From IMG/VR virus record IMGVR_UViG_3300024353_000005, positions 17,675-81,674 of that record: 64,000 nucleotides of DNA; one strand, given 5' to 3'. A program made the translations under genes and the position numbers. Of this stretch, positions 17,425 to 62,996 are shown piece by piece. The notes beneath the pieces were generated by a model, which made no database searches, had not been told where the DNA came from, and was given only the letters and a program-made list of their open reading frames with translations. How positions within the stretch are numbered: position 1 is the stretch's first letter; every line of letters starts with the position of its first letter. Source of the stretch: a virus.

Positions 17425-17443
17425 CTCCTATTTTTAATAGTTT

Positions 17444-18340: not shown

Positions 18341-18851
18341 GATTGGAATTTGTATGCTTTTTGTATTTCATACTGCAAACTTTGCATTTCTCGTTCCTGC
18401 CTATCTTTCTTTCTGGTCTTTGATAAGGTTGTGCTTTTTCATCCAACATCAATCGCCCTTCCAAATGTCCGATTTCGTGCTGTGCCACTATCGCTTCCAT
18501 CCCACATAAAACATATTTCGCCCTGTCAAACCCATTCTCAATGGTTATCTGCTCGTATCTCTGGGTCGTTATCTCTTTTTTCTGGTCAGGCAAACTTAAA
18601 CATCCCTCTTTGTAGAATACTATTTCTCCATTATGCTCAACAATTTTGGGATTTACTAGGTCAAGCTTTTCCTTATTAGGAATACGAATGATAGCAACTT
18701 TAGCATCAATGCCGATTTGATTTGCTGATAAACCTATTCCATTTTTGTGCTGGGTTAATTCGGCTTCAAGTTTTGAAATGATTTCCTTTACCTGTTCCTG
18801 ACTAACATCTTTGCAAGGAACTCGTAATTGTTTAACATTAGTGACTATCAT
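18309..18851 (-). CDS. def: Peptide deformylase with SEC-C-like tail
   Basis: GIGLSANQIG, EGCLS, QHEIGH; C-terminal KIGRNEKC..KYKKH. Confidence 0.92.
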   Translation of the reverse strand: MIVTNVKQLRVPCKDVSQEQVKEIISKLEAELTQHKNGIGLSANQIGIDAKVAIIRIPNKEKLDLVNPKIVEHNGEIVFYKEGCLSLPDQKKEITTQRYEQITIENGFDRAKYVLCGMEAIVAQHEIGHLEGRLMLDEKAQPYQRPERKIGRNEKCKVCSMKYKKHTNSNHGFVPKGEID

Positions 18852-19420
18852 TTATTTTCCTTATAAGCTAATGATACGATTTTGAAAGGCTCAGAAACCC
18901 CACCACTAAAATAAGAAGCACATTTTAATGCCCTTTGAACTTTAACTTTAGCACAAATTTTCCAACCTTGTAACGCATATATGACTCCGAGAGCGTAGTC
19001 CTCTCCACAACCTGTTGCAATATAATCTGTTTCATCACATGCTACCTGAAAATCATTCTCAACAGTATATAAATTATCTTTATAGCCAATTATAAATGTT
19101 CCCCCTGTTTCCTGATTATTTTCAACTTTGGTATAGCCATTTTTCTTTAGGCACTTTTTAACAGCATCGATAAAATCTGTTACTAAATATTCGTAATCGC
19201 TTTTAGATGATTTTTGCTTCGGAATCTTTAACTTATATCTTAATAGTTGCCCCATTCTAAAAGAGGAAGTGAAACCAAATATCATATTCCCATTCTGAAA
19301 TACTTTTTCATCTTTCCTAATTCTGACATCTAAACCAGATACTCCAGCCGAGTCTCCACCGATGTAAAGTATTCCAGCCTCTCTATCATTATATCCGACT
19401 ATACAAGTGGTAGTTTTCAT
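18848..19420 (-). CDS. HslV/proteasome-beta-like Ntn hydrolase
   Basis: TTCIVG..GGDS, ATGCGEDYALG. Confidence 0.75.
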   Translation of the reverse strand: MKTTTCIVGYNDREAGILYIGGDSAGVSGLDVRIRKDEKVFQNGNMIFGFTSSFRMGQLLRYKLKIPKQKSSKSDYEYLVTDFIDAVKKCLKKNGYTKVENNQETGGTFIIGYKDNLYTVENDFQVACDETDYIATGCGEDYALGVIYALQGWKICAKVKVQRALKCASYFSGGVSEPFKIVSLAYKENK

Positions 19421-24683: not shown

Positions 24684-25397
24684 TTATTCTCCCCGATTAA
24701 ATTTTAGAATTTTTTGTTTCGCTTTATGTAAATCTTTTAGTTCATGTTCCCAAAAGATTAAAGTCTGATAACCGTAGGCTCCATAAACTATTGATCTTCG
24801 CTTATCTCTTTTTTTAGTATCTTTTCTATTGTGCCAATAATCGCCATAGAGTTCTATTATTTTCTTCTGACCATTATAATTTATGAAATCTGGATTTAAT
24901 CCTCCCAATATAACTTTTCCATTTCCGACATATTTATATTCATTTGGCAAGATTTTCTGAAGAAATTTATCTAATAGTTTCTCTGGTTTATTAGGCTTTA
25001 TCCTTAAAGATTTCATCCATTTTTTAATTACTCTATTTTTATACTCTTTATTCTGCCATCTCTTTAACATATTTCTTTTAAATTTTCTTTTCGTTTCTAA
25101 ACTATGTTTATAACCTTCCAACGATTTACTAATTCGATCTTTAATATTTTTGGAGATAATATGACCTTTTAGGGCTTCGCTTTTAGTTCTTATTTTTATA
25201 CTGTATTTTTTCAAATATTGTCTAATGGTTACATCGCTACAATTAAATATTTTAGCAATTTTCATTGATGATTTTCTATTCTCGATATATTCTTTAATCA
25301 AATATTGTTTAGTTATGGGGTATTTTTTGGGCCTTTTTAAAGCCGCTAATCTCATTTTCTGTTTAGTCTCTTTTGTATGTTTTGAGTTCAGCTTCAT
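24684..25397 (-). mobile_element. Free-standing homing endonuclease (NUMOD3 + Vsr/DUF559-like)
   Basis: HTKETKQKM and HSLETKRK repeats; PDFI..IIELYGDYWH..FWEHEL. Confidence 0.8.
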
Positions 25398-27607: not shown

Positions 27608-29113
27608 CTAATTTTTATTTTTTTCAAATCTACTTTTTTCTCGTAATACCTGCAAAAATATATCTACTAATTCTGGATCAAATTGTTTTCCCTTCTCTCG
27701 TTCCAATTCTTCTATTGCTTGTTCCTTAGTTTTAGGATTTCCATTATAGGGTCTTTTGTGTATCATTGTATCATAACTATCTAAAATAGCAGTAATACGA
27801 GAAAGTAAAGGGATATTCTGACCTCTCAATCCATCAGGATAACCAGTTCCATCCCATCTTTCGTGGTGGCGTAATATGTAATCCGCTATATGAGAAAATT
27901 GCCTTACCCCTTTTAAAATGTTATAGCCTAAAATTGGATGAGTTTTCAGCTTTTTCCATTCTTTTTCAGTTAAAGGTTCTTTTTTATGAAGTATTCTGTC
28001 TGGAATGCCTATCTTACCTATATCGTGAAATTTAATAGTATAATGTAAATCTCTTATTTCTTGAAGTGATAAATGAAGTCTTTTAGCGAATTTAGCTCCC
28101 AATTTTATTAATCTATTATGATGTATTTGAGTTCCCATATCTTTTTGTTTCATAACTTCAATTAAACTATTAATAAATTCTTTCTGAGCAGTGCCTTCTT
28201 TATCCATTTTATCTTTATACATTTCTTCATCTGCTTTAGATATATATCTATTTAAATCTTCTTTTTTAAATTCAGTTATTGTAATAGATCCAATAGCATA
28301 GTTAATATTAATTTTTTTAACTTCTAAAGAATAAGATTTACATTTTCTATTTAATTTCTTAATAATTTCTTCTGCACGACTTCGGTCTGTTTGTTTAAGA
28401 AGGATTGAAAATTCGTCCCCCCCAATTCGTGCTACTACATCGTCTTGTCTTACGCAATTTCTCATAGACTTTCCAAAATATCGAAGTATCTTATCCCCTG
28501 CTGGATGTCCCCAAGTATCATTAATAATTTTTAAATGATTTACATCTATTGAGATTATAGAAATGGGATAGTTTCTTTTAGTATTTATTCTTCTCAATTC
28601 TTCTTCAAAATAAGTTCTGTTATATAACTCTGTCAACGAGTCGTGATAGGCATTATATTTTATCTGCTCTTGTAATTTTCTGTGCTCAATTCTACTTTTT
28701 TGTAATTGCAATTTTATTTGTCGCTTTGTTTGTCTTGCCATATACTCTTGAAAACTTGTTTTTATAACCTCCAGAAAAGTTAATGTGTCATAGGGTTTTA
28801 TCAAAAGCTTTTTAATTCCTATTTCTAACAATTGTTGTGTTTGTTTTAATGTTAAAATTAAACCAGTTATTACTATAATACAAGTGTCAGGATAATTTAA
28901 TTTTATATAATAAGCTAAATCTACCCCATTTCCATCAGGTAATTCAATATCAATTATTACTACTCCAATATTATTTTCTTTGAAGATTTTCAACCCTTCC
29001 TGAAAAGAATTAGCAATTAAAGTTTTATAACCCTGAGCTTGAAGATTTATAGAAATAGCTTTTGCTAATTCTTTGTCATCTTCTATAATAGCTATTTTAG
29101 GAATATTATTCAT
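27608..29113 (-). CDS. REC-GGDEF-HD-GYP protein (diguanylate cyclase / c-di-GMP phosphodiesterase)
   Basis: REC: IIEDD, IIDIELPDGNG, ITG, IKPY. GGDEF: DSLTELYNR, NDTWGHPAGD, RQDD I-site, RIGGDEF. HD-GYP: HDIGK, HHERWDGTGYP. Likely start 29113. Confidence 0.95.
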   Translation of the reverse strand: MNNIPKIAIIEDDKELAKAISINLQAQGYKTLIANSFQEGLKIFKENNIGVVIIDIELPDGNGVDLAYYIKLNYPDTCIIVITGLILTLKQTQQLLEIGIKKLLIKPYDTLTFLEVIKTSFQEYMARQTKRQIKLQLQKSRIEHRKLQEQIKYNAYHDSLTELYNRTYFEEELRRINTKRNYPISIISIDVNHLKIINDTWGHPAGDKILRYFGKSMRNCVRQDDVVARIGGDEFSILLKQTDRSRAEEIIKKLNRKCKSYSLEVKKININYAIGSITITEFKKEDLNRYISKADEEMYKDKMDKEGTAQKEFINSLIEVMKQKDMGTQIHHNRLIKLGAKFAKRLHLSLQEIRDLHYTIKFHDIGKIGIPDRILHKKEPLTEKEWKKLKTHPILGYNILKGVRQFSHIADYILRHHERWDGTGYPDGLRGQNIPLLSRITAILDSYDTMIHKRPYNGNPKTKEQAIEELEREKGKQFDPELVDIFLQVLREKSRFEKNKN

Positions 29114-32100
29114 TTTTTCTCTCTCAAATAAACCATTCGTCTTACACATCCCGCAGGAATTAGTATAGGCTCATCTTCAGGATGACCATTTATTCTCTTC
29201 AGAACAACTTTCTCTTTATCCTTATGCCATAAATAACCAACGATTTTTATTTCAGGCAATACTAAATCTTCTATTTTCCATACTCCTTTACCATAAGAAA
29301 TCATATCTACGAGGGTAATCTCTACTCGCTTGTATTCTCTTTTCCTTTTACCCATCTTTATTCTCCTTTATATTTCCATAATTTTGATAATCAGCCAACA
29401 AATTAAAAGAATTAATAATACTGCTAATAACAGCATCTCATTTCCCCTTCTTTCGATACTCATTAAATAATCTATTTCTTTCCAGCGGACAATCCTTACA
29501 ACTCTTTCTCTTACAAATCCAACAAAGAGGCTCTGTGTTCTTTAAGATATAATCAACATTTTCCTCTAAATGTTTAATTGCCATTGCTTTTTGTAAAAAT
29601 ACTCTTGGATTAATTTTCATTTATGTCCCTTTTTTATACTAAAAATCTTCTTACAACTCATACAAAGACTTACTCGTTGTTCCTGACTATTTGAAAATTT
29701 AATGACTACCTTCTGTGTATTCTCACTTTTACAATATGGACAACAATTATTTTTCATTATATCTCCTTTATCTATCTGGTTTATATTCCTCTTTTTCCCG
29801 ATAAATTAAGTAAGAAACTAGAAACAAGAAAACGATTAATCCTATTCCTATCTTAAGTAAAAACATTTTATAGTCCCCCTTGCTATTTTATATTAAAGAT
29901 GAAAGAAGACAAGATAAAATCTCTGTTAAGATATAGCCAATCCGTAAAATCAACAAGCCAAAAACTATTGCAAGACTAACAACTGCTACAGTAAATATGT
30001 TTTTATAAGTCATTTTATCCTCCTTATTTATAGTTCTACTATTTTGTAATCTTGGGCACAATTCACTCTCGCCCATTGTTCGGCACTATGCCCACTTCCA
30101 AAAAAGATAACATCCCCCTCTTCATTTCTATCTATACTACAATTGTCATAAGTATCTTTAACATACTCGATTACGATGTACATTATTTTATTCTCCTATT
30201 AAAATTCTTTTTTTACTCCGAGATACTTTGCTATCTTCTCTGCAATTTCTGCTTTCTTCTTAAGGTCAGTCAAATCAATATGAAAATAGTTAGCATACTC
30301 TCTTAATTGTTTTGTGGTTAATTCACATCTTAGCATTTGCCAATCGGTTTTTCTCATTCCTTTATGCCTCCATTCCAATATGTTTACAACAAGTTTTACA
30401 CATTAAAACTACTGCTTCTTCATTATTTTTTTCCAGAACCAAATTAGCTTTTTCATATTTTATCATTAAATCTATTCCGATATCTTTAATAGTAAAAGCA
30501 AAGGGTGATTGTTCATTGCCACAAGTCTTACAATTAGGATATAATACATTTTCATCTCTACTATATACTTTTGTGCCTAAGATTAATTTACTCATTTTTT
30601 CTTTCCCTTTATTATCTCTACTAATTTAGAACATTCATCCAATATTTGACTTTCGTTTACTTATCCTAGCCCTTCTAAATACAAAGTCTGTATTAACATA
30701 ATAATAATCATAATATAAATCTGAAGATATAACTAAATTATTATGTCTTCCCTTATCTTTTCCAAGAACTTCTAATAATTTTTGGGTTTCTTCAGGAGAT
30801 AACCAATCTACCAATGTAAAAGCCTTATCATTCATAGTCCACTTAGCATCCATTATCTTTCTCCAACTTTTGTTAATCTCTATTTTTCTTTACTCCCTTT
30901 AATTGCTTTCGACCCGCCATTGATTTAACCTATATCAGGCTGTCCCGTTCTTTCGGTAGCCTACCACTTTTAATCTATATGGTTTCTTGACAGGCAAACA
31001 AGACAGCCTATTTTATTCCTTTTCAATATCTAATTCTAATAGTATATCATCTAAAATATCCGAAGCGGAAGGCAACTGTATTTCCTCATTTTCAACATAG
31101 ATGCCGCTTAAATATTTGTCAATGAGTTTTTCTACTGTTGCATAATCCTGTCTATCAATTTTAATTTTAGGCATTACCTTCCTCCTTTGGTTCTATTGGA
31201 GAATTACTACTCCCTCCCTGTGATTGACTATAACAATATATTGTTTGTTTTAATTTATTTGCTATTGGTTGAGCTAATTTTTCGCCCCTGTCAAATTCTC
31301 CAATCGTTGGTTTTTCATCTTGATATAATACTTCTATTATTTTGTCAACCCAACCCTGTCTTGTTCTATAAGTTTTTCTTCCCTTGCCTACCACCACAAA
31401 AGTTAAATGCTTATCTCTTAAATCAACTCCTGTATTACTATATAAATCATCAGAATTAGTGTGCCAGGGTGCTTTTAATTCTTCTATTGTTCCATCTTCC
31501 AAAGTAAAAGATAGTGTTCTTCCACCAAAACCATCGGAATTTTTGCCACCAGATACATAGATATTATCAGCAGGATTATCCTGAATAGCGTATAACCAAA
31601 TTCTGCCTGACTTTCCAATTACCTTTTTGTATCGTCTTTCCTCTGCTTCAGAATGACCGCATAGCATCGGTTGTCTATCAATTATATAATCCATTTTTCC
31701 ATCTCCCTTATTCTTGAAAATCAACTTTAGTCCCATTCTCATAATAAGCCTCGTCTGGATGATTTTGGCAGTATCCAAACTCTATCCCAAAGTCATTGTA
31801 AGCCCAGAAAGACTTGAGGCACTTCGGGCACCTGCCCCTTGATACCCAGAATTTTGTCCCTAAGTGTTTAATCAAAGCATAACAAATATCTAAAAACCAA
31901 ATTATTACAAATATAATATATATTAACAAAAATTTATTCATTTTTATTCTCCTAATCCTCATCGTAAATAAATCCGCACTCGCTACAAACAACCTCATAA
32001 CTGCCCCTACTGCTTCGCATAACTATATCCCCACCGCAGACTATACAAGGTCTTTTCCTGTTGGTATATTCCAGCCTTTCTTCAGAAGATAAATTTCTAA

Positions 32101-43619: not shown

Positions 43620-44978
43620 GTGAATTTGACCTTTCCTTTCTTTAATAGGCATAAGCGAGAAAAAGACAAGCTTATTGCCGAGATACAAGATTTACAGAAA
43701 AAAGCAGTTCAAGAACCCAAAATAGACCCAGCATCCTATATTCACGATTATAGTGAAAGTGATGAAACTAAGGGTAGGGATACTCGTGTTAGCTACTCGA
43801 TGCTGGAGCAGATATACAAGAAAGAATCTTGGGTGAGAGCATGCGTAGATGTTATAGTTAGAACCGCCACCTCAAATGGGTGGCGTTTACTTTCTATAGA
43901 GAGTAAAATTGACTTAAAAGGAGCTGAGTTAAGCAAAGCTTTATCCTCAAATTTAAAAATAATGGCTTTAAAGGACTTGCTAGAAGAACCCAATGCGGAT
44001 GACACATTTTCAGATATAGTCGCTGAAATTATCACAGATTTGCATATTTATGGCGATGCTTATGTTGAGGTTGTAAGAGATAAGGCTACTGATTTGCCAG
44101 TAGCCCTTTATAATGTATATTGTCCATCAATGAGAATCAAAGTTGACGAGCATGGTCGGGTGTTGGGTTATGTTCAGGTTTTTGATTGGCAGATAGTTGC
44201 CGAGTTTAAACTTAACCAGATTATCCATTTTAGACTAATTAATCCTGGTTCAGAAGTTTATGGCTTATCACCTCTGGAAAGTTTAATCATACCCATTGAA
44301 ACCGATCTTTATGCTCAAGCATATAACAAAAACTTTTTCAAAAATGATGCGACACCAAGATTGCATGTTGATTTAGGTAATTGTACGCTACCTCAGTTAA
44401 AGAGAATGAGGGAATATTGGCGAACTGTTTATAAGGGTAGTGGTAAATCCCATAAAACAATTATAACTGAGGGTGGGGCAAAAATAACTCCCATCGGAAC
44501 TCCTCCAAAGGATATGGAGTTCTTGAATCAGAGGAAATTTAACCGAGATGAGATTTTGGCTGTTCTCGGTGTGCCTCCGATTATGGTTGGAATAGTTGAA
44601 AGTTCAAACAGGGCAAACTCAAAAGAACAAGCAAATGCTTTTAAAACAGAGAAAATTATTCCACTTCAAAAAATGGTAGCAGCCAAATTAAATAAGCTAT
44701 TGATTTCTGAGTTCACAAATAAATACACTTTCAAATTCGCTGAATTAGATTTGCGAGATGCTTTGGATGCAGCAAGGATAGACCAGATGGATTTGAAAGC
44801 TGGAATTCGTGATATTGAGGAAGTTCGCAGAGACAGGGGATTACCTCCCAAGAAGAAACATTCGATTGAGCAAGAAGAAATTGAAGAGCCACAGGAAAAG
44901 CCAAAAAAGAAGACCAAAAGAGATAAGAAGTCGAAGAAGATTATCAGATTTTTGAAAGAAGACAAGGAAAGGGAATAG
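43620..44978 (+). CDS. HK97-family portal protein
   Basis: WVRACVDVI, PNADDT, YGDAY, IIHFR, YGLSPL, FFKN, DMEFL, GVPP. Confidence 0.95.
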   Translation: MNLTFPFFNRHKREKDKLIAEIQDLQKKAVQEPKIDPASYIHDYSESDETKGRDTRVSYSMLEQIYKKESWVRACVDVIVRTATSNGWRLLSIESKIDLKGAELSKALSSNLKIMALKDLLEEPNADDTFSDIVAEIITDLHIYGDAYVEVVRDKATDLPVALYNVYCPSMRIKVDEHGRVLGYVQVFDWQIVAEFKLNQIIHFRLINPGSEVYGLSPLESLIIPIETDLYAQAYNKNFFKNDATPRLHVDLGNCTLPQLKRMREYWRTVYKGSGKSHKTIITEGGAKITPIGTPPKDMEFLNQRKFNRDEILAVLGVPPIMVGIVESSNRANSKEQANAFKTEKIIPLQKMVAAKLNKLLISEFTNKYTFKFAELDLRDALDAARIDQMDLKAGIRDIEEVRRDRGLPPKKKHSIEQEEIEEPQEKPKKKTKRDKKSKKIIRFLKEDKERE

Positions 44979-45074: not shown

Positions 45075-48000
45075 ATGAAAGAAAATACCAAAAAAGATTT
45101 AATAGTTCATCCCAGAAAGATAACTCCTGATATGAAAGCAGTTAAATTATCGGAGGTTGTTTCAGTTGTAGATTCATTTGTAATAAAAAATCCATTTCTA
45201 TTTTTGACAGGTGGGATAGTTAATCGGAATAAAACGAAGGGCGACTTTGATATTTTGTATCGGGCTGAGTATTTACCAGATAGGATGCTCCAAGAAATTA
45301 AAGAAAGACTAATGAATAGACTCAATGACGATTTGAGAAGTCGGAGTCACCTGATGACAGATGCCTACCATGGCCCTTTTACCTCAAATATCCCATTGGG
45401 AAAGTTACAAGTAACTAAAGTAGAAGAAAAGGCAGAGAAAAAATCTTATATCCCAGTCGGTTCTTCTGGTGTTGAAATGGGAGAAGATATTCACTTAAAT
45501 GATATTCTGAAAGGTCTTTCCTCTTTTGTATTTGAAGAAAAGTTTCTATGGTTAGTTGGCGAACTACCAGCAAATGGCGAAACCAAAAAATATATTGATT
45601 TTGTTTTTTGCTATCCAAAACTTCCATTATCTATTTCGGTTGCCCTTAAGTTTAGAATATGGAGAGCACTCCCCAAAGAATACTGGCATCGAATTAGGTA
45701 TCGGTTCGACACGAACTTCGAGCCATCCGATACAGATATTTGTCTTGGGAAATTAGAATTTATTTTAAATCCAGAATTTAATATAGTTGAGATGAGCTTG
45801 AAAAATTTAACTGCTAAACAAAGAGCTGCATCACCAGAAATAAGAGCTCAAGCAAAAGCCTCGTCGGAAGAAGACAAAGTTAAACTGTTTAGATTTTATT
45901 TACCGCTTAAACCAATTAGAGGATATTTCCCAAGGGAAAGACAGACTATCGGTTTATTTGTATCAATTGTAACAGATGAAAGTAAAGGGCCTTGGTATTC
46001 GACAAAGAAGTATGATGGATTAAATCTGGAGTTTCATTACGATAAAGGCAAAGCAACAATTATTAGCGAAGATGGAGAAGACAATACTGGTAGGTTTCCA
46101 AAGTTAATTGAAGAATTGAAGGAACTCGGTGCAGATAATTTTTCTTTTATAGCAGAAATAGAGTTATGGAAAACGGTGGATGGAGAATTGAAACATCAAC
46201 CGAGAGAAGCTGTTATAGGGAGAGTTCACAGGAAAGGCGAACCAGACGAAACTGGTTTGGTCGCAAATGTTTACGATATAACCTATCTGAATGGTAAAGA
46301 TATTCATAATGAGCCATTTGAAAAACGATTGCAAGCTTTGAAGTCTTTAAAATTTTTACAGGCAACTTGGAGAAAACCAAATTTAAAATATAAACTAAAT
46401 AGAGCACCAGCAGTCTTGAGCAAGTCAGCAGAAGATATTAGAAAGCATACACAATTTTTAAGAAAACTTGATGGTTCAGAAGGAAATGTAATTAAACTCT
46501 CATCTGCCAAATATAGATTGGATGGGAAAAGAAGTAATCAATGGAAATTCCATAACTCTGGAACTGCTAATGTAATTGTTATAGAAGCCATAGAAACAAA
46601 AGTGAAAAACATATGGAATTATCTTTTTGGACTTGACCCGCAGGATAAGAAAGTCCCAGAAAAACTTTTGGTTGAAATTGGTGGAAAGAAATATCTCAAG
46701 GTGGGAAAAACATTTTCTTCTGCTCGACCAATGAAAAAGGGCGATGTATTTTTGCTAGAATATGAAACTCTTAATTTGGAACGAAATGAAAAAACCGATG
46801 AAATAAAGGTAACGGCTTGGGCACCGAGGGAATTGGGAAAAGTTGAAGAAAAAGTTGATACAATAGATAATGCTGTGAGGAAAGCGAAAGCTGGATTAGT
46901 ATTTCAAGAAAAAATAATTCCAGTGGAAGGAGAAATTATTTACAAGATTGGATTAACTCCAGATTTGGAAAAACAAGTCTTGCTTTATAAGGAAGTTCCA
47001 GCCGAGGATAAAGGCCCTTATAAATATATCTGTCATCATCATTGGAGAGGCAAGAGCTGTCATACTGATTTACGTATTGTAGCAAAGCGTGGCGAATATG
47101 CAATTGGTTGGACGATAGATGATTTGATAAAGGGTGCTATTAAAGAGCCAGTAGTAACTATGAAGGAAGCGAAAAGAATTGAGAAAGAAGGCAAAGCATT
47201 TAAGATAGATTGGAAAACTGGAAAATTCGCTATGCGGAGAACTGCTGCTGGACAAGTAAAACCGACTGAATTACGAGCACACGAAAAAGCCAGAATACCA
47301 ATTGAATGGATGGAAGTTCAAGGAGTCGCTCCTGCTGGAACAGTTGGGGCAACAAAGGAGTATCCAGCTGTATTTTTAATTATAGATAAGGGTAAGGCAC
47401 AATACTTGACACAAAAGCCAGCTTTTCACGAATATTGGATGGATGGCACGCTAAAAGGCAGATTGGTTTTTCGCAGATTAGAGCAGAAAGCTTTTAAAAG
47501 TTTAGTGGAGAGGGGAATTTTACCAGAGTATATCTTGAATAGTTTTAATGCTTCATTGGCTTATGTAAATAAGGAACTCAATCCAACTGAAATTAATTGG
47601 GTTCCATTGACTAAGAATGGTTGTATAGTATTTAGGAAATCTGATTTAAGAAAAATTATTTTGCCACCGTCGGAAATTCCAGAAGGGAAACCTCGTGTAG
47701 GAGTTTTCTGGGTTGCGATTCAACCTATTGTGCAAGTTCCTTATGTTATTTCAAGACGAGCAGTAAATAAGAAGTGGGTTCCACCAAAAGGCTTTTCAGC
47801 ATTACCGTTAAATTTGAAAAAGAAAGTTCCAGAAGAGTTTAAATACTGGACAAAAACAAAAATAGGCGAAAGACGAAAAATTAGGGATGCTTATTTTGAA
47901 TATTTGAAAAAGCAACCGAAAAAGAAAAAAGTAGTAGAGAAGAAAGTGGGAACATTTCCATTTGCATTACATTGGCATTGGTTTCGTGGTCCAGTAGTTG

Positions 48001-48569
48001 TTAGGCGAGGACCATCTTCGCAACATTGGGATGTTAGAATAGATAATGGCGAAATGCCTTTCCCACATTTTCAATGCACCGAAAATCCAGCAGTAATTGA
48101 TAAAACAACCTGTGTGTATAAGCCTTGCAAAGTTAGAGAGGCACTTGAATGGAACGGTTCAATAGCCCCTGCTGGAGTTACTAAAGAACTGATTGAGGTA
48201 ACTGTAGTAGAAAAAGTCGATGAAACTGCTGAAGGAGAAATTTACACTGTTAAAGATAAAAAAGGCGAAATACATACTTCCAAGCCAGTTCGGTTTCCAC
48301 GATTGAAAAAGGATGACAAGGTTTGGATGGATCATTTGGAAAGATTATGGACTATTATTAATACCGACGCTAATCCGACAAAGAATACTCCAGCTTATTC
48401 AGTTTTGATAGATGATGGGAAAGCGGAAGTATTGGAAGATTCAGATTTATTTAAGAAAGTTAGATTTAGAGGGAAAAGTCTTAAAGGATTATATACATTT
48501 ACAAGAGAAGATCCGAAAACAGATATATGGGTAATGGAAAAAAGTGGTTTACCAGGAGAGGAAAGATAA
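45075..48569 (+). CDS. Multidomain protein: two Pol-beta-like NTase domains, ATP-dependent DNA ligase + OB fold, two LigD 3'-phosphoesterase-like domains
   Basis: LTGGIV..GDFDIL; KKYDG, AEIE, VYDI, EGNVIK; HHWRGKSCHTDLR..IDKG..LKGRL; HW..HWDVRID..IDDG..FRGKSLKGLY. Confidence 0.82.
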   Translation: MKENTKKDLIVHPRKITPDMKAVKLSEVVSVVDSFVIKNPFLFLTGGIVNRNKTKGDFDILYRAEYLPDRMLQEIKERLMNRLNDDLRSRSHLMTDAYHGPFTSNIPLGKLQVTKVEEKAEKKSYIPVGSSGVEMGEDIHLNDILKGLSSFVFEEKFLWLVGELPANGETKKYIDFVFCYPKLPLSISVALKFRIWRALPKEYWHRIRYRFDTNFEPSDTDICLGKLEFILNPEFNIVEMSLKNLTAKQRAASPEIRAQAKASSEEDKVKLFRFYLPLKPIRGYFPRERQTIGLFVSIVTDESKGPWYSTKKYDGLNLEFHYDKGKATIISEDGEDNTGRFPKLIEELKELGADNFSFIAEIELWKTVDGELKHQPREAVIGRVHRKGEPDETGLVANVYDITYLNGKDIHNEPFEKRLQALKSLKFLQATWRKPNLKYKLNRAPAVLSKSAEDIRKHTQFLRKLDGSEGNVIKLSSAKYRLDGKRSNQWKFHNSGTANVIVIEAIETKVKNIWNYLFGLDPQDKKVPEKLLVEIGGKKYLKVGKTFSSARPMKKGDVFLLEYETLNLERNEKTDEIKVTAWAPRELGKVEEKVDTIDNAVRKAKAGLVFQEKIIPVEGEIIYKIGLTPDLEKQVLLYKEVPAEDKGPYKYICHHHWRGKSCHTDLRIVAKRGEYAIGWTIDDLIKGAIKEPVVTMKEAKRIEKEGKAFKIDWKTGKFAMRRTAAGQVKPTELRAHEKARIPIEWMEVQGVAPAGTVGATKEYPAVFLIIDKGKAQYLTQKPAFHEYWMDGTLKGRLVFRRLEQKAFKSLVERGILPEYILNSFNASLAYVNKELNPTEINWVPLTKNGCIVFRKSDLRKIILPPSEIPEGKPRVGVFWVAIQPIVQVPYVISRRAVNKKWVPPKGFSALPLNLKKKVPEEFKYWTKTKIGERRKIRDAYFEYLKKQPKKKKVVEKKVGTFPFALHWHWFRGPVVVRRGPSSQHWDVRIDNGEMPFPHFQCTENPAVIDKTTCVYKPCKVREALEWNGSIAPAGVTKELIEVTVVEKVDETAEGEIYTVKDKKGEIHTSKPVRFPRLKKDDKVWMDHLERLWTIINTDANPTKNTPAYSVLIDDGKAEVLEDSDLFKKVRFRGKSLKGLYTFTREDPKTDIWVMEKSGLPGEER

Positions 48570-50047
48570 TGAATAAAATGTTTGATGAACCAACAAAAGA
48601 CGAAGCTATTGATTTAACGGAATTTGAGCCATCCAAAGCTGGTATCATAGATAAATTTTTAGGAACAAAACCACATAAGAGACGAACATTACATAAGAGT
48701 TTTCCAGGGTTTAAGGCAGCATTATTTTTTAAGGCGGTTACAGAAATTTTAAATGGGTATAAGATTTATGCTACTATTAGTATTTCTCGTGGTGAATTAG
48801 CTGCTCCAGAATATTCTTATTTGGCGGTTGGCAGAGATAAAAGAGAAGAACTTCTTATTGATGGTTACAGATTAGTTGAGAAAGATGGTAATAGAGTAGT
48901 TATTCTTGTAGAGCCAGGGATGAGAAGTATGTATTTAGATATTTATTATCCTGAAGAGAAGTCCGATTTAGCTTTGAATTTTTTAAAATCTGTTGAAAAA
49001 TATATGTCAGAAAATAATTTTTATAAAGGAGAAAAGATAACTCCTGCTGGTGAGTTTTTGCCTATTCCAAATTTAACATTTGATGATGTGAAATTACCAA
49101 TGGATAAAAAAGAGGCAATTAGAGTAGGAGCATTGGAGTTTTTTAAGAAAAAAGAAATATATGATAAGAATAATATTCCTTACAAAAGAGGTTTAATTCT
49201 TACTGGTCTTCCAGGAACTGGTAAAACTCTAACAGGTAAAATTTTACTGGCTCAAAGTGATTGCACATTTATATGGGTTACACAGGATATGGTTTGTTAT
49301 AGTGAAGATATCAAATATATGTATGATATGGCAAAGGAATTGGCTCCTTGTATTCTTTTTATGGAAGATTTAGACGACTATTTAGAAAAAAGTTCTGCTG
49401 TTGGTGTAGTAAAAACCCAAATGGATGGACTCACTTCTGTAGATGGTATTTGCACAATTCTTTGCACAAATTATCCTGATAGATTGCCAAAAGCTCTTCT
49501 TGATAGGCCGAGTCGTTTTGACGAAGTTGTTATATTCAGTTTGCCAGATGAACAACTTAGATATGAAATTTTAAATAAACTTGCACAACCTATGAACATC
49601 ACTAATAAAGATAAATGCTTAAGAGATATTGCATCGAAGTCCGATGGTCTAACTGGAGCCCATCTAAAGGAAGTTTTAGTTTATGCACTATTACTTTCTG
49701 CCGATGATGGTAGAGATATTGTGGAACTTAATGATTTAGAAAAATCACTTAAGAAGGTTTTAAAAACCAGAGAGTTAGTTAATGGTAAAATTGGTTTGAA
49801 GTCAATGGAAGAAATTGTTGATATGATTAAGAAAGAACTTGCAAAAGAAGACACAGAGGAAGCTCGGAAAGTTAAAGTTATTATAGTAAATGTTCCAAAG
49901 GAAATTTGGGAGTGTCCTTATTGTCACAAAGAAATTGGTGAGAAGGGAATATATTATGATGATGAAGTAGGAAAGCATTATCATAGACCATGCAAAAATC
50001 GTGGGAGCATAATTTTACCAGGTGAAGAAGGAGAGGAAACAAAATGA
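48569..50047 (+). CDS. AAA+ ATPase (classical clade)
   Basis: GLPGTGKT, LFMED, TNYPDRLPKALLDRPSRFD; TAATG coupling to the upstream gene. Confidence 0.92.
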   Translation: MNKMFDEPTKDEAIDLTEFEPSKAGIIDKFLGTKPHKRRTLHKSFPGFKAALFFKAVTEILNGYKIYATISISRGELAAPEYSYLAVGRDKREELLIDGYRLVEKDGNRVVILVEPGMRSMYLDIYYPEEKSDLALNFLKSVEKYMSENNFYKGEKITPAGEFLPIPNLTFDDVKLPMDKKEAIRVGALEFFKKKEIYDKNNIPYKRGLILTGLPGTGKTLTGKILLAQSDCTFIWVTQDMVCYSEDIKYMYDMAKELAPCILFMEDLDDYLEKSSAVGVVKTQMDGLTSVDGICTILCTNYPDRLPKALLDRPSRFDEVVIFSLPDEQLRYEILNKLAQPMNITNKDKCLRDIASKSDGLTGAHLKEVLVYALLLSADDGRDIVELNDLEKSLKKVLKTRELVNGKIGLKSMEEIVDMIKKELAKEDTEEARKVKVIIVNVPKEIWECPYCHKEIGEKGIYYDDEVGKHYHRPCKNRGSIILPGEEGEETK

Positions 50048-51660
50048 ACAATTTATTTGATAATTTGCAGTTTAAAGTCTATACAGATATTCTGAAGAAA
50101 TCTAAAAAGGATGGTAAGCGTCTTATCAGTGGATATGCTTCTACTGCTGCCCTCGATAGGCAGAACGAAGTTATTACTATAGAAGCATTGCGACAGGCTG
50201 CGAATCATCTGCTTGAAAACCATACTGTTTTCTACGAACATGAGCATCAAAAATTTCCCGTCGGAAAAGTTGTTGAAACAGGAATTGATGATAAAGGTTT
50301 GAGAGTTATTGTGGAGATTTCACAAACAGCCGACCAACTGTGGACATTAATAGAGGAAGATATTCTTGATAGTTTTAGTATCGGTGGCAGAGTAACATCA
50401 TCAGAGGAAAAAGTGGGAAAAGATGGTAAATCTTATAATGAGGTTACAGGCATAGAATTATTTGAGGTAAGTGTTGTTGGATTACCAGCTAATCCTGAAG
50501 CGAAATTTGCATTAGTAAATAAATCTTTTAACACAGCGATTACAGACGAAATCAAAAAGAGAAAGGAGGGGAAAGAAATGGCAGAAGAAAAGAAAATCGA
50601 AACTACTGATTCTGATACTACTAACATTACTGTTTCTGATGGAACTTCTGATGTTGTTGAGACTACAGAACCCAAAGCCGAAGAAAAGAAGGTTGAGGAG
50701 ATTGTGAAGGAAACAGCAGAGAAAAAAGAAACTACAAAAGTAGAAAAGAAAGAGGATAGTAAAATAGTAGAGAAGGAAGATACTCAGAAAGAGGATTTGG
50801 AGAAATATGAAAAAGAGGATAAAGAAGCCTCTGAAAAAATAGAGAAAGAAAAAGTTGAGGGTACAAAGACTGAATCTGCTTCTATAGCCTTAGACGATAC
50901 TTCTACTATTCAAATTAATCTCTTACCAGATAAAACTGATGATACAGTTTCAGAAGAAAAAGAGGAAAAATCTGAACCAGTGGAAGAAAAGAAGGAAGAA
51001 CCGAAAGTAGAGGAAAAAAAGGAAGAAGAGGTAGAAGACGATAGTGAAGCAACTTGGGAACTTTTAGTTGATGAAGTTGAAAATGCTAAACAATATCCCT
51101 ATCCTTATTATCCATATCCTTATGCAAAACTAGGTGAAGAGGTAAAGGAGATTATTTTCTTATTGGATAAACTTATCGCAAAAGAAACCAATGAGGATGT
51201 AAAAGCTATATTGCAGGAGATAAAGGCGAAGGTCTCAAAATTGGTTGGTCAGGCATATCCTTATCCTGAGAAATATCCTTATCCGAAAAAGGAAGAAGAA
51301 GCTGGGAAGCAATATCCAGCTCCTGAAGCTCCTCTAAAAGAAGTTTTGGCGAGTCTTAAGGATTTAGGTAAGAAGATTGATGAGGTTCTTGCAAGACTTC
51401 CTGAAAAAGATGTTGAAGTAAAAGAGCCAGAGAAGAAAAAGGAAGAACCTAAAGTTGAGGAAAAAATTTTAGAGGCTGAAAAGAAAGAAGAGCCAAAAGT
51501 TGAAAAGAAAGTTGAGAAAGCGGAAGAAGAAAAACCACAAAGAAAAAGTTTTATAGCAGATGCTCCTTATGCCGATAAGAAAAAGGATGAGGAGAAGAAA
51601 GATGTTAAAAAGACAACTGATAAAGGTTGGAACCGAATAGTATTTGGAGAACAAAAATAA
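50044..51660 (+). CDS. HK97-type prohead protease fused to an acidic scaffold domain
   Basis: ISGYAST..DRQNE, YEH, SFSIGG, LFEVSVVGLPANPEA; E/K-rich C-terminal part. Confidence 0.93.
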   Translation: MNNLFDNLQFKVYTDILKKSKKDGKRLISGYASTAALDRQNEVITIEALRQAANHLLENHTVFYEHEHQKFPVGKVVETGIDDKGLRVIVEISQTADQLWTLIEEDILDSFSIGGRVTSSEEKVGKDGKSYNEVTGIELFEVSVVGLPANPEAKFALVNKSFNTAITDEIKKRKEGKEMAEEKKIETTDSDTTNITVSDGTSDVVETTEPKAEEKKVEEIVKETAEKKETTKVEKKEDSKIVEKEDTQKEDLEKYEKEDKEASEKIEKEKVEGTKTESASIALDDTSTIQINLLPDKTDDTVSEEKEEKSEPVEEKKEEPKVEEKKEEEVEDDSEATWELLVDEVENAKQYPYPYYPYPYAKLGEEVKEIIFLLDKLIAKETNEDVKAILQEIKAKVSKLVGQAYPYPEKYPYPKKEEEAGKQYPAPEAPLKEVLASLKDLGKKIDEVLARLPEKDVEVKEPEKKKEEPKVEEKILEAEKKEEPKVEKKVEKAEEEKPQRKSFIADAPYADKKKDEEKKDVKKTTDKGWNRIVFGEQK

Positions 51661-51716: not shown

Positions 51717-52718
51717 ATGTTAGACGATGCAATTAAAAAAGCTGTTGGAATAGGATTACAGAAAGCTGATGCTGAGGACTTGTTATCATCTGAAATCGGA
51801 AACTTCTTACCTACCGAGTATGCTACAGAGTTTGTAGCCTTGGTGAGGGAGAAGAATTATGCCCGTGAACTTTTCAGAACGATAACTATGCCTACAGCTA
51901 CTTTTGAGATTCCTAGAATCGATGCAGATGCTACGGTGTACTATGTCTCTGGTGAGGCTACTGCCCCTACTGCAAAATCAAGTCTTGATACTGCTTTTGC
52001 TGGTAAGGTTACTTTAGTGGCTAAGAAATTGATGGCGTATACTGATATTTCTACCGAAGTGGAAGAGGATTCTAAAGTTGCAATGCTTCCTCTTATAAAG
52101 GATGCTTTTGCAGAAGGAGTCGCTACTGCTGAAGAGAAAGCTATGATTCAGGGCGATCCAGCACTTAGTTGGAGCAATGCTCAAGATGTTAGAGAAGCTC
52201 TTGAAGGAGTTCTTAAATTGGGTGCTGCTAAAGTTGTGGCTTATGCTACTTCTTTGTTAGCTACTATTGAAGTTGCTAGAGTTGCGATGGGCAAGTATGG
52301 TCGTGGTGTTGATAAGCTGATACTTTTAGTTAGTCCTTACACTGCTTCTAAATTACGCCAAGAACAATCTGTTCTGACTGTTGAAAAATATGGTCCGAAC
52401 GCAACGATTCTTAAAGGTGAATTAGGGCAATATATGGGTATTAAACTCATAGAATCTCCCTATATCCCTGAAGAATTGACAGTTAGCGTAATGGAAGGCG
52501 GAGCACTTACAGGAGCTGATTTAGGTGTTGCTATTCTAATGAGAAAGGATGCGGTTATTATCGGTGACAGACGGAAAGTAAAGTTTGAATCTGATAAGAT
52601 TATCGAAGCAGATGCTCTTAGAGTGGTAATCTCTGAAAGAATTGATTTTAAACAGACCCTTGGAGTTGGGTCAATCGTGAGAATCAGTGGTTTGGAGAAT
52701 AGCTATGTGGCACCATAA
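51717..52718 (+). CDS. Major capsid protein (HK97 fold)
   Basis: FLPTEYA, AKKLMAYTDISTEVEEDS, EEKAMIQGD; follows the protease. Confidence 0.93.
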   Translation: MLDDAIKKAVGIGLQKADAEDLLSSEIGNFLPTEYATEFVALVREKNYARELFRTITMPTATFEIPRIDADATVYYVSGEATAPTAKSSLDTAFAGKVTLVAKKLMAYTDISTEVEEDSKVAMLPLIKDAFAEGVATAEEKAMIQGDPALSWSNAQDVREALEGVLKLGAAKVVAYATSLLATIEVARVAMGKYGRGVDKLILLVSPYTASKLRQEQSVLTVEKYGPNATILKGELGQYMGIKLIESPYIPEELTVSVMEGGALTGADLGVAILMRKDAVIIGDRRKVKFESDKIIEADALRVVISERIDFKQTLGVGSIVRISGLENSYVAP

Positions 52719-53851: not shown

Positions 53852-54601
53852 ATGAGTGCAAAAAAAAGATACTATTGTATAGATTGTGGTAAAGAAATCA
53901 GTATTTTTTCTGGGTTTTATGGTCAAGGAAGATGTGGTTCTTGTGCTATGAAAAGAAGATTTAAGAATCCAGAGAATCATCCGAGGTTTGGGAAGCACAA
54001 CACAGCAGAATCTAAAAAGAAAGTAAGTTGCTTGTTAAAAGGAATAAAACGGTCTAGGGAAACAAAGGCAAAGATAAGTAAAGCAAATAGTGGCAAAAAG
54101 CCAAGTTTAGAAGCTCGAAAGAAAATGAGCAAAGCCCATAAAGGTCAAAAATCTTGGAACGAAGGGAAGTTGGGTGTTTATTCTGCTAAAACTTTAAAAT
54201 TAATGTCAAAGAGACAATTGGAAAATCCTATCAGATATTGGCTTGGTAAGAAGCGACCTTCCATAACAGGCAAGAAGAATTATCATTTTGGAAAACCTCT
54301 CAGACCTCATTGGGGTATGTATAAAGGAATAAATATGAGAAGTAACTGGGAAATATGGTTTGCCCAATTTTTAGATCTGAGTGGGTGTAAATGGAGATAT
54401 GAATCTAAAACTTTTGATTTGGGTAAAACTACATACACACCCGATTTTTATATTCCAGAGTGGAATCAGTTTATTGAAATAAAGGGATATTTTTCTCAAA
54501 AAGCTATAGATAAAATAGATTTATTTAAAGAACAATACCCTAAAGAGAATTTAAGAATTTTTAAGAGAGAAGATTTGAAAAAAATTGGTGTAATCGTATA
54601 A
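53852..54601 (+). mobile_element. Free-standing NUMOD3 + PD-(D/E)xK homing endonuclease
   Basis: SRETKAKISKA and SLEARKKMSKAHKG; RSNWE..YTPDFYI..FIEIKG. Confidence 0.85.
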
Positions 54602-55372: not shown

Positions 55373-56482
55373 ATGTATAAAGTTAGATTTTATTGTATAG
55401 ATGGTGCTCATTATGAGTATTTAGAACAGGAAACTATTGATGAGAATGTAACTTGCTCTACTCATCCTGAGTCTGAGATCAAGGATTTTGTAATCATAGA
55501 GGATGTAAATGATTTAACAGATGCGATTGATAAAAAGCACATTCAAAATACTGATACAGCATTAAGAACTGATAAATTTATAGTAGACGCAGATGGAAGA
55601 GTGCATATAGATACCTCTTTACCAGAAGCACTTAGAATAGGAAATGGTGCGACTGGTGTAGATTATAAAATTAAATTTTCTGGCAATAATGGCGATGGAG
55701 AAATTATTTGGCAGGAAACCAAAGACAAGTTTAAATTTGATTGTGGGCTTGATGTAACAGGTTGTGGATTTATAGATTCAATAAATGAATACACACTTGA
55801 TGCAGGAGTAATAGTTGAAGGTGTAGTAATTAAAGATGGTGAAATAGATACAGACCTTATAGCTAAAAAACACGACCACGATAATAAAACCGAACTCGAT
55901 TTAGTAACAGATGGCGACCACGATACTCGTACTGACAATCCTCATGGAGTTACTGGCATAACTGGCAAGACAGGTCCTACTGGACCAACAGGAGTAGGAA
56001 TAACAGGTCCTACTGGTCCACAAGGAACTACTGGTCAGACTGGTTTACAAGGTAGTGTAGGGACTACTGGACCCACAGGTCCGCAAGGTATTCGAGGTGT
56101 TACTGGACCAACTGGGCCTATAGTAGCCACTACCTATGCAGAAGACGAAACAGTATCAGGTACTACAGATATCGCTTGGCAACAAAAATTTAGAATGAAT
56201 TTTACACCTCCCTCTACTGGAAATTATTTATTAGAGTGGTCACTAGAAATTACCAACAGTAAAGCTGGTTCAAGCACTTATGTTCAGATTGAATTAGATG
56301 ATATAACTAAAATCAATCATATAATTAAAGAACCTGCTATAGTGGGTATATATACAAATTGTTCTGGATTTAAAAAATTAAACTTTGTTGATACTAATTT
56401 ACACACAATAGATGTAGATTTTAAAGCTGAGGCGGATACTGCATCAATTCGTAGAGTTAGATTATTTATTAGAAAAATATAA
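55373..56482 (+). CDS. Fibre protein with short collagen-like segment
   Basis: DKKHIQNTD; Gly-X-Thr repeats. Confidence 0.7.
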
Positions 56483-59320: not shown

Positions 59321-60205
59321 ATGCCAACTGGAATTTATAAAAGAAAATATGATTTTGTAACTAAAGAATTTTTAATTAGAGAGTATGTTAAAAATAGAAA
59401 ATCTAGATCGCAGATAGGAAGGGAATTGGGTTGCAGTAAGCATGTTATAAGAAACAAATTGGTGAAATTTAATATTTTAATGAGAACTTTAAGCGAAGCA
59501 TTGAAAGGCATAAAAAAGAAACCATTTACTAAGGCACACAGAGAAAATATAGCTAAAGCATTTAGGGGTAGAAAAAGAAAACCTTTTACAGAAGTAACCA
59601 GAAGAAAAATGAGTCAAAGAATGACAGAAATATTAAAAGAATTTCCTCGAACTGGTAAAAAAGCAGGCAATTATATTGATAATAGGACTAAAACTAAGCA
59701 TTATTGTATAGAAACTAATTGCAATAATAAGATAAGTCTTAGTAATTGGTACACTGGAAGTAAAAGATGCAACTCTTGTTCTCATCGTTTAGCTGGATTA
59801 AGGTGTTGGAAAGATCCAATTTATCGAGAAAAACAAATAAAAGCTAGCTTTAAAGGATTAGATGTAAAGCCAAATAAATCTGAAAAACAGTTGAATAGAT
59901 TGCTCCAAGAATCATTGCCCAAGGAATATAAATTTGTTGGTGATGGTCAAATATTTATTAATGGTTTCGTTCCAGATTTTATAAACATCAATGGGCAGAA
60001 AAAACTCATTGAATTTTTTGGGAGTTTTTGGCACTCAAAGAAATGGATAGGTAGAACTAAAAAGCAGGAAGAACAGAGAAGAATTAAACACTTTGCTAAA
60101 TACGGTTATCAAACTTTAATAGTATGGGAACATGAATTAAATGATTTAGATAAGATAAGAGAAAAAGTGCTTATCTTTAACAAAAGGGAGGTAAGCTGTG
60201 GATAA
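59321..60205 (+). mobile_element. Free-standing homing endonuclease, paralogue of 24684-25397
   Basis: KPNKSEK..EYKFVGDG..PDFININGQKKLIEFFGSFWH..WEHEL. Confidence 0.82.
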
Positions 60206-60470: not shown

Positions 60471-61325
60471 ATGGCAACTAATTATAGGGTAAATGTAAGA
60501 GATATATTCTCGTTTCAGGAAACTGTAAAAGATAAAGACCTAACCACATCTCCCATAGCAGTTAAGGGTGATCGTTATATTATCGCTGGCACTGGTGGGC
60601 AGTGGTCAGCTTTTGCGGTTAATGATATAGTTTATTGTTCTACTGCAGGCGATGCTGGAACAGCAGTTTGGCAGAAAATAACGCCAACAGAAGGCTATAT
60701 ATGTTGGGTAGATGATGAGAACGAGTATTACAAATTTGATGGAGCCAACTGGTCAGAATATTTAGGGCAAACTGGTCCGACAGGTCCACAGGGAACTCAA
60801 GGCCCTACAGGTTTACAGGGTGTACAGGGTGAAACTGGCCCACAAGGTCCTCAAGGTGTAACTGGTCCTCAAGGAGTGCAGGGTATAACTGGTTCGCAGG
60901 GAGTTCAAGGAACTACAGGTCCTACTGGTCTTCAAGGAACTCAGGGTAAGACGGGTCCGACTGGACTTCAAGGTGTCCAAGGTACAACTGGAGCTACAGG
61001 TGCAACAGGTTTACAGGGAGTTCAAGGTACCACTGGCCCTACTGGATTACAAGGTTCACAGGGTGAAACAGGACCAACTGGTTTACAAGGTAAAACTGGA
61101 CTCACAGGTCCTCAAGGAGTTCAAGGTATTACAGGACCCACTGGTCCGCAGGGAACTCAAGGTACTCAGGGAGAAACTGGAGCAACTGGACCTCAGGGAA
61201 AAACTGGACCAACAGGTCTCCAAGGTGTACAAGGTGAGACAGGTGTTACAGGTCCGCAAGGTCCCTCAGGCCCCGATGCTACTTATGATGCAGACTACAA
61301 ATGCCTCATAATTTCAGCTAGTTAA
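60471..61325 (+). CDS. DUF2793-like domain + collagen-like fibre
   Basis: [23 protein letters not shown]; long G-X-T/G-X-Q repeat. Confidence 0.8.

Positions 61326-61397: not shown

Positions 61398-62996
<1,599 letters not shown>

Follow-up and report, generated by a model that had tools for sequence, protein, structure and literature searches.

The 1164-residue protein encoded at positions 45075 to 48569 (plus strand) of a 64,000-nucleotide stretch of viral DNA, hereafter the window, carries on one chain an ATP-dependent DNA ligase, an apparently active nucleotidyltransferase (NTase) and two phosphoesterase (PE) modules of the type found in bacterial LigD, and its gene lies within the head-assembly module. 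The window is positions 17,675 to 81,674 of the IMG/VR record IMGVR_UViG_3300024353_000005 (81,674 bp, linear, CheckV completeness 77%), and has a GC content of about 35%. We suggest, and give the idea an even chance of being right, that this is a polyvalent, head-associated end-healing and sealing enzyme which acts on the phage's own DNA on entry; gene context, and domain fusions in relatives, suggest that it may be packaged and injected. Judged by its sequences, the family is widespread among uncultured bacterial and archaeal viruses with unrelated capsid genes. New from this window are an NTase present twice, one of the copies having decayed; a second PE-like module that is intact and holds an inserted OB-like barrel; the recognition, at residue level, that the first PE-like module and not the second is the constrained one; and an AAA+ ATPase gene between the ligase gene and the protease gene.

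Domain organisation of the protein

The open reading frame (ORF) divides into the following parts:

45075..48569, plus strand: the whole multidomain ORF, 1164 aa, with an ATG start
45075..45449, plus strand: N1, minimal Pol-beta-like NTase, aa 1-125, with an intact G46-G47...D57-x-D59
45450..45824, plus strand: N2, degenerate NTase copy, aa 126-250, recognised by its self-match to N1
45825..46559, plus strand: linker and ATP-dependent DNA ligase adenylation domain, aa 251-495 (PF01068; motifs I, III, IV and V)
46560..46979, plus strand: probable ligase OB domain, aa 496-635 (an ESM-Atlas language-model lead only)
46980..47519, plus strand: C1, LigD-PE-like module 1, aa 636-815 (profile matches to PE structures)
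47520..47954, plus strand: C2, conserved spacer of unassigned fold, aa 816-960 (homologue alignments)
47955..48566, plus strand: C3, LigD-PE-like module 2, aa 961-1164 (fold and profile)
48159..48362, plus strand: small OB-like beta-barrel inserted in C3, aa ~1029-1096 (model superposition and the 36-sequence C3 alignment, A5)

From its sequence, the central part is certainly an ATP-dependent DNA ligase, and its motif set is complete. PF01068 matches aa 299-490 with 63.4 bits (cut-off 26.2; E 2.9e-17) and also matches 35 of 45 relatives; human LIG1 chains match the ligase part at E 5e-8, and a search with the family profile finds archaeal DNA ligases at E 2e-23. The residues K312-Y-D314-G315 (KYDG, aa 312-315), E361/E363, E469-G470...K474 and W490-K491, which we take to be motifs I, III, IV and V respectively, are invariant in a 10-sequence alignment (A3), the second basic residue of motif V being His493. 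Pfam and NCBIfam models run on the single 1164-aa protein recognised the ligase only, and PHROGs gave no match. A ligase OB domain is probable at aa 496-635, where the nearest named ESM-Atlas clusters score 0.91 and 23-51% of their members carry PF14743 or PF04679, which we treat as a lead only; no Pfam OB-domain model matched this region.

Upstream of the ligase the protein begins with two repeats, N1 and N2, which match each other at E 3.8e-5 and 1.7e-4. N1 contains T-G46-G47-x9-D57-F-D59-I-L and so fits hG[GS]-x9-13-Dh[DE]h, which we take to be the signature of Pol-beta-like NTases; N2 fails it, having G-E for G-G, Tyr for the first Asp (Y-I-D) and EPSD for GPFT. Across the NTase alignment (A6) the signature residues are nearly invariant (G46 in 27/27, D57 in 24/27 and D59 in 26/27 sequences), and the family consensus LVGGL.N.G.T.GDIDIL is itself a Pol-beta-type signature. 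Most relatives have one NTase copy, the duplication being confined, among the aligned loci, to the window, L001 and L002. When the AlphaFold2 model of N1 (mean predicted local distance difference test score, pLDDT, 83.9) was compared with 48,161 chains, the top five were all minimal (MNT-type) NTases (8xeh_E, 1no5_B, 1ylq_B, 1wot and 2rff), at low Z scores of 4.4-5.3; Foldseek gave a best E of 0.24, with MNT chains at ranks 2-5, all at E > 0.2, and no Pfam model matched the NTase region. We regard the N1 motif as convincing and the fold match as suggestive; N1 is apparently an active NTase of the minimal Pol-beta type and N2 a degenerate copy of it.

The C-terminal half holds two mutually homologous barrels of the LigD-PE superfamily, C3 being assigned from its predicted fold and its profile and C1 from its profile. 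The structure of aa 630-1164 was predicted from a 45-sequence alignment (mean pLDDT 84.9), and a Foldseek search of the PDB with this model returned LigD PE entries at all of ranks 1-7 (3p43, 3p4h, 3n9d, 3n9b as two chains, 2lj6 and 5dmp; E 9e-5 to 8e-3), followed by unrelated folds at E > 0.01. VIA-align placed the PE match on model residues 331-531, that is aa 960-1160 or C3, which superposes on the archaeal PE 3p43 at Z 14.4 (root-mean-square deviation, rmsd, 1.9 Å over 120/124 residues), on 3p4h at Z 13.7 (2.0 Å, 115/118 residues) and on 3n9b at Z 12.7 (2.2 Å, 117/148 residues). A profile of C3 only (36 sequences) likewise finds 3p4h (E 7.6e-8) and 3p43 (2e-7), with 3n9b, 5dmp and 2lj6 at about 2e-3. 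The assignment of C1 rests on sequence profiles, the structure aligners giving one alignment per chain, which C3 takes: the top two PDB matches of a C1-only profile (aa 636-815, 39 sequences) are 3p4h (E 6.3e-4) and 3p43 (E 0.012), colinear and in two segments, and an hhalign comparison of C1 with C3 gives a probability of 96.3% and E 1.7e-9 over 111 columns. The C1 model has pLDDT mostly above 88 and includes an insertion of about 45 aa relative to PE. The Pfam model LigD_N (PF13298) does not match this protein at E<=0.1, nor anything in a six-frame search of its own record, while 7 of 45 relatives match it at E<=0.01, the best at 1e-6; relative P0046 reaches 24.8 bits, the cut-off being 31.1. 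Against BFVD, Foldseek returned nothing at E<=0.001 for the C-terminal model, the best informative row being an 827-aa protein without a name (E 5e-3).

In PaeLigD, Mn is bound by His42, His48 and Asp50 and the phosphate by Arg52, His84 and Tyr88; replacing these six residues by alanine abolishes activity (PMC8656161). Their equivalents are as follows, those of His84 and Tyr88 having been placed with moderate confidence by hidden Markov model alignment to 3p4h:

PaeLigD His42: C1 H656, His in 39/39; C3 H968, His in 14/36
PaeLigD His48: C1 H663, His in 39/39; C3 H984, His in 12/36
PaeLigD Asp50: C1 D665, Asp in 39/39; C3 D986, Asp in 18/36
PaeLigD Arg52: C1 R667, Arg in 39/39; C3 R988, Arg in 20/36
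PaeLigD His84: C1 I741 (Glu in 27, Gln in 7, Ile in 3 and Gly in 2 of 39); C3 ~K1019, not conserved
PaeLigD Tyr88: C1 W745, Trp in 39/39; C3 ~A1023, not conserved

The family-invariant residues of C1 are H656, H663, D665, R667, W745 and E786. This suggests that it is C1 which is under constraint and probably catalytic, its phosphate pocket being altered, and that C3 is a copy often decayed in relatives and intact here. The 3'-phosphoesterase activity of C1 or C3 is a prediction and is not assured, because both modules lack the His84 and Tyr88 equivalents.

Within C3, model residues 400-467 resemble the OB-like barrels of ModG and of the PAN N-domain (Z about 6); this insertion is present in 5 of the 36 sequences of alignment A5 (the window, L001, L012, L015 and L017), most relatives being without it. 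The spacer C2, found in 159 of 182 collected homologues, has the family motif PYVLS.RAV.K.W.PP.G.SALP; its first ~60 residues are poorly predicted (low pLDDT at model residues 176-245), and an ESM Atlas search with it gave no match above 0.83 and no recognisable fold. Many family members also share the C3 tail ...S-x-L-P-G-E-E/K in their last ~10 residues (window ~48540-48566; alignment A5). In relatives with a capsid-protease domain, that domain directly follows this tail, which could be a processing or targeting signal.

This domain reading agrees overall with a preliminary description of the stretch, made from its letters, which had given the ORF coordinates and length exactly. It had proposed two Pol-beta-like NTase repeats, the first with an intact GG..DFD and the second degenerate, and a KxDG ligase, all of which are borne out by the self-match, the motif tallies and PF01068. 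It had also proposed two LigD phosphoesterase-like modules with H..HxDxR motifs; these motifs can be read directly, as H656...H663-T-D665-L-R667 and H968...H984-W-D986-V-R988, and both modules match PE by profile. It had allowed that the C-terminal modules might not fold like LigD PE; C3 does fold so in its model (Z 14.4), the evidence for C1 being sequence profiles.

The gene family and its linkage to head genes

An exhaustive HMMER search found 1350 family representatives (50%-identity clusters) at E<=0.001, 915 of them at <=1e-10 and 463 at <=1e-30, and the order N-LIG-C1-C2-C3 recurs in proteins of ~650-2300 aa. An artefactual fusion was considered and rejected, as most distant relatives show this order in one ORF. 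Source names within the family include Hodarchaeales metagenome-assembled genomes (MAGs). Among 50,697 records of the GenBank phage collection, the only homologue is in the uncultured ANMV-1 virus, and a two-peptide-pattern scan of 185,579 species genomes found five short MAG contigs only, with no cultured host. We found no description of a head-module ligase-PE protein in the literature, including by term searches of PMC5512222 and PMC7824862.

Relatives carry extra domains on the same chain: D12 and C5 DNA methylases, a metallo-beta-lactamase (MBL)-fold hydrolase, uracil-DNA glycosylase (UDG), a 2H phosphoesterase and an intein-like LAGLIDADG segment. Five of them, scanned because precomputed labels had flagged them (P0020, P0021, P0023, P0033 and P0041), have an XkdF/S78-type capsid protease at the extreme C-terminus. 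Splitting of the gene into two ORFs is frequent among the surveyed loci. In L001 (106 kb), the closest complete relative, the gene is divided into 668- and 612-aa ORFs by an insert of ~350 nt at the ligase/C1 hinge (split at L001:12004-12009, insert at ~11870-12240), and other relatives have entire additional domains at this hinge. A GTP cyclohydrolase I gene lies beside or between the parts of the ligase protein at L022:6353-6925 and L032:8269-8958, and may be linked to 7-deazaguanine DNA modification.

For the survey of gene order, 60 IMG/VR loci were collected with the 10-sequence alignment A3 (the single protein as query gave three close loci only), and removal of the near-duplicates L007, L036, L042, L044 and L049 left 55; neighbours of >=150 aa were labelled by phmmer with the window's proteins and by Pfam at E<=1e-5 (151 neighbours). 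Of the 47 loci having upstream genes, 34 had a portal or MuF gene no more than two genes upstream; a protease or capsid gene lay no more than two genes downstream in 29 of 48 loci, and at least one of these head-gene linkages was present in 46 of 55. The linked portals belong to PF04860 or PF06074 and the linked capsids to PF05065, PF25209, gpT or SU10; this variety of portal and capsid families means that the linkage is not the simple shared descent of a single head module.

In the window itself, the ORF is flanked by these genes:

43620..44978, plus strand: portal, 452 aa, directly upstream of the 1164-aa ORF (PF04860 E 2.9e-59; phrog_12 E 3.5e-77)
48527..50047, plus strand: AAA+ ATPase, 506 aa, CDC48/FtsH/PAN-like (PF00004 E 3e-18; TIGR01243 E 7.5e-29, under its cut-off)
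50044..51660, plus strand: S78 prohead serine protease with a long Glu/Lys-rich tail (PF04586 E 2.3e-14)
51717..52718, plus strand: HK97-type major capsid protein (PF05065 E 1.2e-16)

The gene had been placed by the preliminary description between portal and prohead protease, in the usual slot of MuF/gp7 proteins. The portal is indeed upstream; the next gene downstream, however, encodes the AAA+ ATPase, and the protease gene follows only after that. The survey of synteny that it had called for confirmed the head-gene linkage and spoke against the MuF slot: at least 12 loci have a MuF gene directly upstream, so the gene accompanies MuF and does not take its place. At L048:6957-8309 the gene upstream of the ligase protein encodes a zincin peptidase domain (Pfam ATLF, E 1e-8); ATLF-type zincin peptidases have been proposed to process polyvalent proteins.

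The AAA+ ATPase gene begins within the 3' end of the 1164-aa ORF, overlapping it by 43 nt, and its product has a Cys/His cluster at the C-terminus (CPYC...HRPC). Among the surveyed loci, an AAA+ gene after the ligase ORF is found in the window and L003 only, the 88%-identical L001 being without it, and an unfoldase within a head operon is unusual.

Possible roles of the protein

The closest known parallel is LigD, together with the stand-alone archaeal PE proteins (3n9b/3n9d, 3p43, 3p4h, 5dmp and 2lj6). As in LigD, an ATP-dependent ligase and PE-type barrels are on a single chain; the PE fold is common to both (Z 11-14), the phage protein has equivalents of the His-His-Asp metal triad and of Arg52, and a nucleotide-adding module is on the same polypeptide, such that the add-trim-seal logic could match. 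Unlike LigD, the phage protein has a Pol-beta-type minimal NTase of ~110 aa in place of the archaeo-eukaryotic primase (AEP)-type primase-polymerase, two PE-like modules and a conserved spacer instead of one PE, and replacements for His84 and Tyr88; and its gene is in a head-assembly operon, not a cellular repair locus. No Pfam or NCBIfam model for an AEP primase-polymerase domain matched the chain, and TIGR02776 and other LigD models match its ligase part only, far under their cut-offs. Ku (PF02735) was found in none of six viral records searched (the window's own and those of five relatives, among which two are 100% complete and have terminal repeats), though a Ku of the host is possible. 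Thus the term 'Ku-less', which had been applied to this protein from its sequence, agrees with these records; 'convergent', applied with it, holds in part, since the ligase and PE modules are homologous to those of LigD, whereas the nucleotide-adding module belongs to another superfamily (Pol-beta-like versus AEP).

Among viruses, the mycobacteriophages Corndog and Omega reportedly encode Ku and borrow the LigD of the host to circularise their genomes. This is likewise phage end joining on the incoming genome, by Ku and a host ligase in that case; here ligase and end-processing modules are encoded and no Ku was found. The ANMV-1 homologue, annotated as 'ATP-dependent DNA ligase' (AJP62006.1, in KP703175.1), has 28.7% identity over 68% of the query (E 2e-48); it differs in being an 866-aa protein annotated as a ligase only, from an uncultured archaeal virus, with a gene for a 'MutT-like phage hydrolase' preceding it.

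Several features recall the polyvalent proteins described by Iyer et al. 2017 (PMC5512222), as far as the main text of that paper presents them: several unrelated enzymatic domains on one phage polypeptide; gene linkage to portal and MuF genes, as in the 46 of 55 loci here; and, in relatives, methylases of the N6-adenine type as well as a peptidase of the capsid-protease type at the very C-terminus, which is where the assemblin-like peptidases of polyvalent proteins are reported (PMC5512222). The window protein itself differs in having no MuF, methylase or protease parts. The main text of PMC5512222 uses 'ligase' for RNA ligases only and does not mention LigD, so a DNA ligase or LigD-PE cargo is not described there. 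A precedent in the same text is P1 DarB, a virion-packaged methylase-helicase which protects incoming DNA from type I restriction (PMC5512222). The idea of a head-carried, DNA-protecting enzyme acting on the phage's own DNA at entry is common to both; DarB, however, methylates, whereas sealing and end-healing are proposed here, and packaging has been shown for DarB and is proposed for this family.

The position in the head module, the methylase partners and the C-terminal capsid-protease fusions of relatives fit the polyvalent-protein concept, and it is for this reason that we favour a head-associated role. In such a role, several DNA-end enzymes on one chain would be produced together with the capsid proteins, and the protein would be loaded into the procapsid beside the portal and would exit with the DNA. 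Once inside a new host cell, the PE module would trim 3' ends (of a 3'-phosphate or a ribonucleotide), the NTase would add one or a few nucleotides and the ligase would seal, the outcome being that ends or breaks of the incoming genome are joined or resealed without Ku. This would be a LigD-like action with a different nucleotide-adding module, and would complement the same-chain DNA methylases of relatives. More tentatively, and with rather more doubt than belief, we extend this proposal to the family: widespread uncultured phages and archaeal viruses may carry a Ku-independent, in-capsid end-joining machine (NTase adds, PE trims, ligase seals), which is ejected to circularise the genome, or to reseal restriction or CRISPR cuts, within seconds of entry. 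Repair cargo would then be a general counter-defence strategy beside packaged methylases.

A number of observations weigh against the head-associated enzyme that we propose. The window protein is without a protease fusion, no MuF domain was found in this phage by Pfam search, and the AAA+ gene separates the ORF from the protease gene; no cultured phage among the 50,697 GenBank records has a homologue. As to catalysis, the NTase fold match is weak (Z ~5; Foldseek E > 0.2), both PE-like modules are without two residues essential in PaeLigD, only 7 of 36 C3 sequences have a complete H-x-D-x-R, and the 87%-identical L001 has Tyr at C3 position 984. In addition, the head-module gene is the sole PF01068 match in each of the six records searched for Ku, and could thus be a plain replicative or repair ligase.

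This last point strengthens what we regard as the main alternative, namely that the protein is a cytoplasmic, non-packaged late enzyme, the phage's only ligase, which seals Okazaki fragments and concatemer nicks before packaging, its place in the operon setting its timing. The same six records contain no NAD-dependent ligase; nicked DNA hampers packaging in T4; and the phage has its own PolA-type polymerase (of which an exonuclease domain was seen) and DnaG-DnaB primase-helicase. However, this phage's replication genes are on the other strand, 20-45 kb off, the gene keeps its place between portal/MuF and protease/capsid (46 of 55 loci) even in phages whose portal and capsid families are unrelated, and the C-terminal capsid-protease fusions of relatives are hard to square with a soluble replication enzyme. 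We consider a late, non-packaged ligase unlikely, though it must be taken seriously.

Two further roles appear less likely than either of these. The protein might repair RNA (tRNA), with the PE clearing the 3'-phosphate or 2',3'-cyclic phosphate ends that host anticodon nucleases or HEPN RNases create, the NTase rebuilding 3' ends and the ligase sealing RNA. The nearest NTase folds are MNT and CCA-head-like, two of 45 relatives have weak PF09414 RNA_ligase matches (best E 5.9e-5) and P0033 also has a 2H/LigT phosphoesterase domain; but the ligase fits DNA ligase families far better (PF01068, matching 35 of 45 relatives, LIG1 and the archaeal DNA ligases), a 5'-kinase domain was looked for without success, and the fused partners of relatives (Dam- and Dcm-type methylases, UDG) act on DNA, and we think such a role very improbable. 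If anything still more improbable is a mainly structural or DNA-binding role in the head, as a gp7/MuF-like holder of the DNA end derived from decayed enzyme domains and with little or no catalysis. The degeneracy of N2, and of C3 in 29 of 36 relatives, would suit this, as would the missing His84 and Tyr88 equivalents; yet this protein retains the ligase motifs, the N1 motif and the C1 triad, all of them (nearly) invariant family-wide, a pattern that speaks for catalysis being under selection.

Should the protein travel in the head and act on the incoming genome, as we propose, it would be the first virion-borne DNA end-joining or sealing system, and would let phages reverse restriction or CRISPR cleavage, or circularise their genomes, with no need of the host's non-homologous end joining. 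The family is also a source of compact ligase and PE enzymes whose active site is of an unusual kind, having Glu or Ile for His84 and Trp for Tyr88.

Other genes of the window

The head and tail module occupies the plus strand from 43.6 kb onward. Up to ~43 kb the minus strand encodes a UDG-PolA exonuclease protein, the DnaG-DnaB primase-helicase, ERCC4, ClpP (9067-9603), peptide deformylase and a GGDEF-HD response regulator (27608-29149, minus strand). No terminase (PF03237) turned up in the record, which is 77% complete. Also on the minus strand are a gene for a 1253-aa protein (11780-15541) in which a family-2 glycosyltransferase is joined to TPR repeats and to two methyltransferase domains (FkbM and Methyltransf_24), and a host-like run of genes (16207-19420) for an HTH-calcineurin-like phosphoesterase, a trypsin-like peptidase and the peptide deformylase. 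The presence of the deformylase and of the GGDEF protein suggests that the host is a bacterium.

Homing-endonuclease-like genes (NUMOD3 with endonuclease-I-like; two DUF559/Vsr-like) at 53852-54601 (plus strand), 59321-60205 (plus strand) and 24684-25397 (minus strand) are scattered across the structural and replication modules. Three tail-fibre-like proteins with long collagen-like G-x-T-G-P-x-G repeats are encoded at 55373-56482, 60471-61325 and 61398-62996 (all plus strand).

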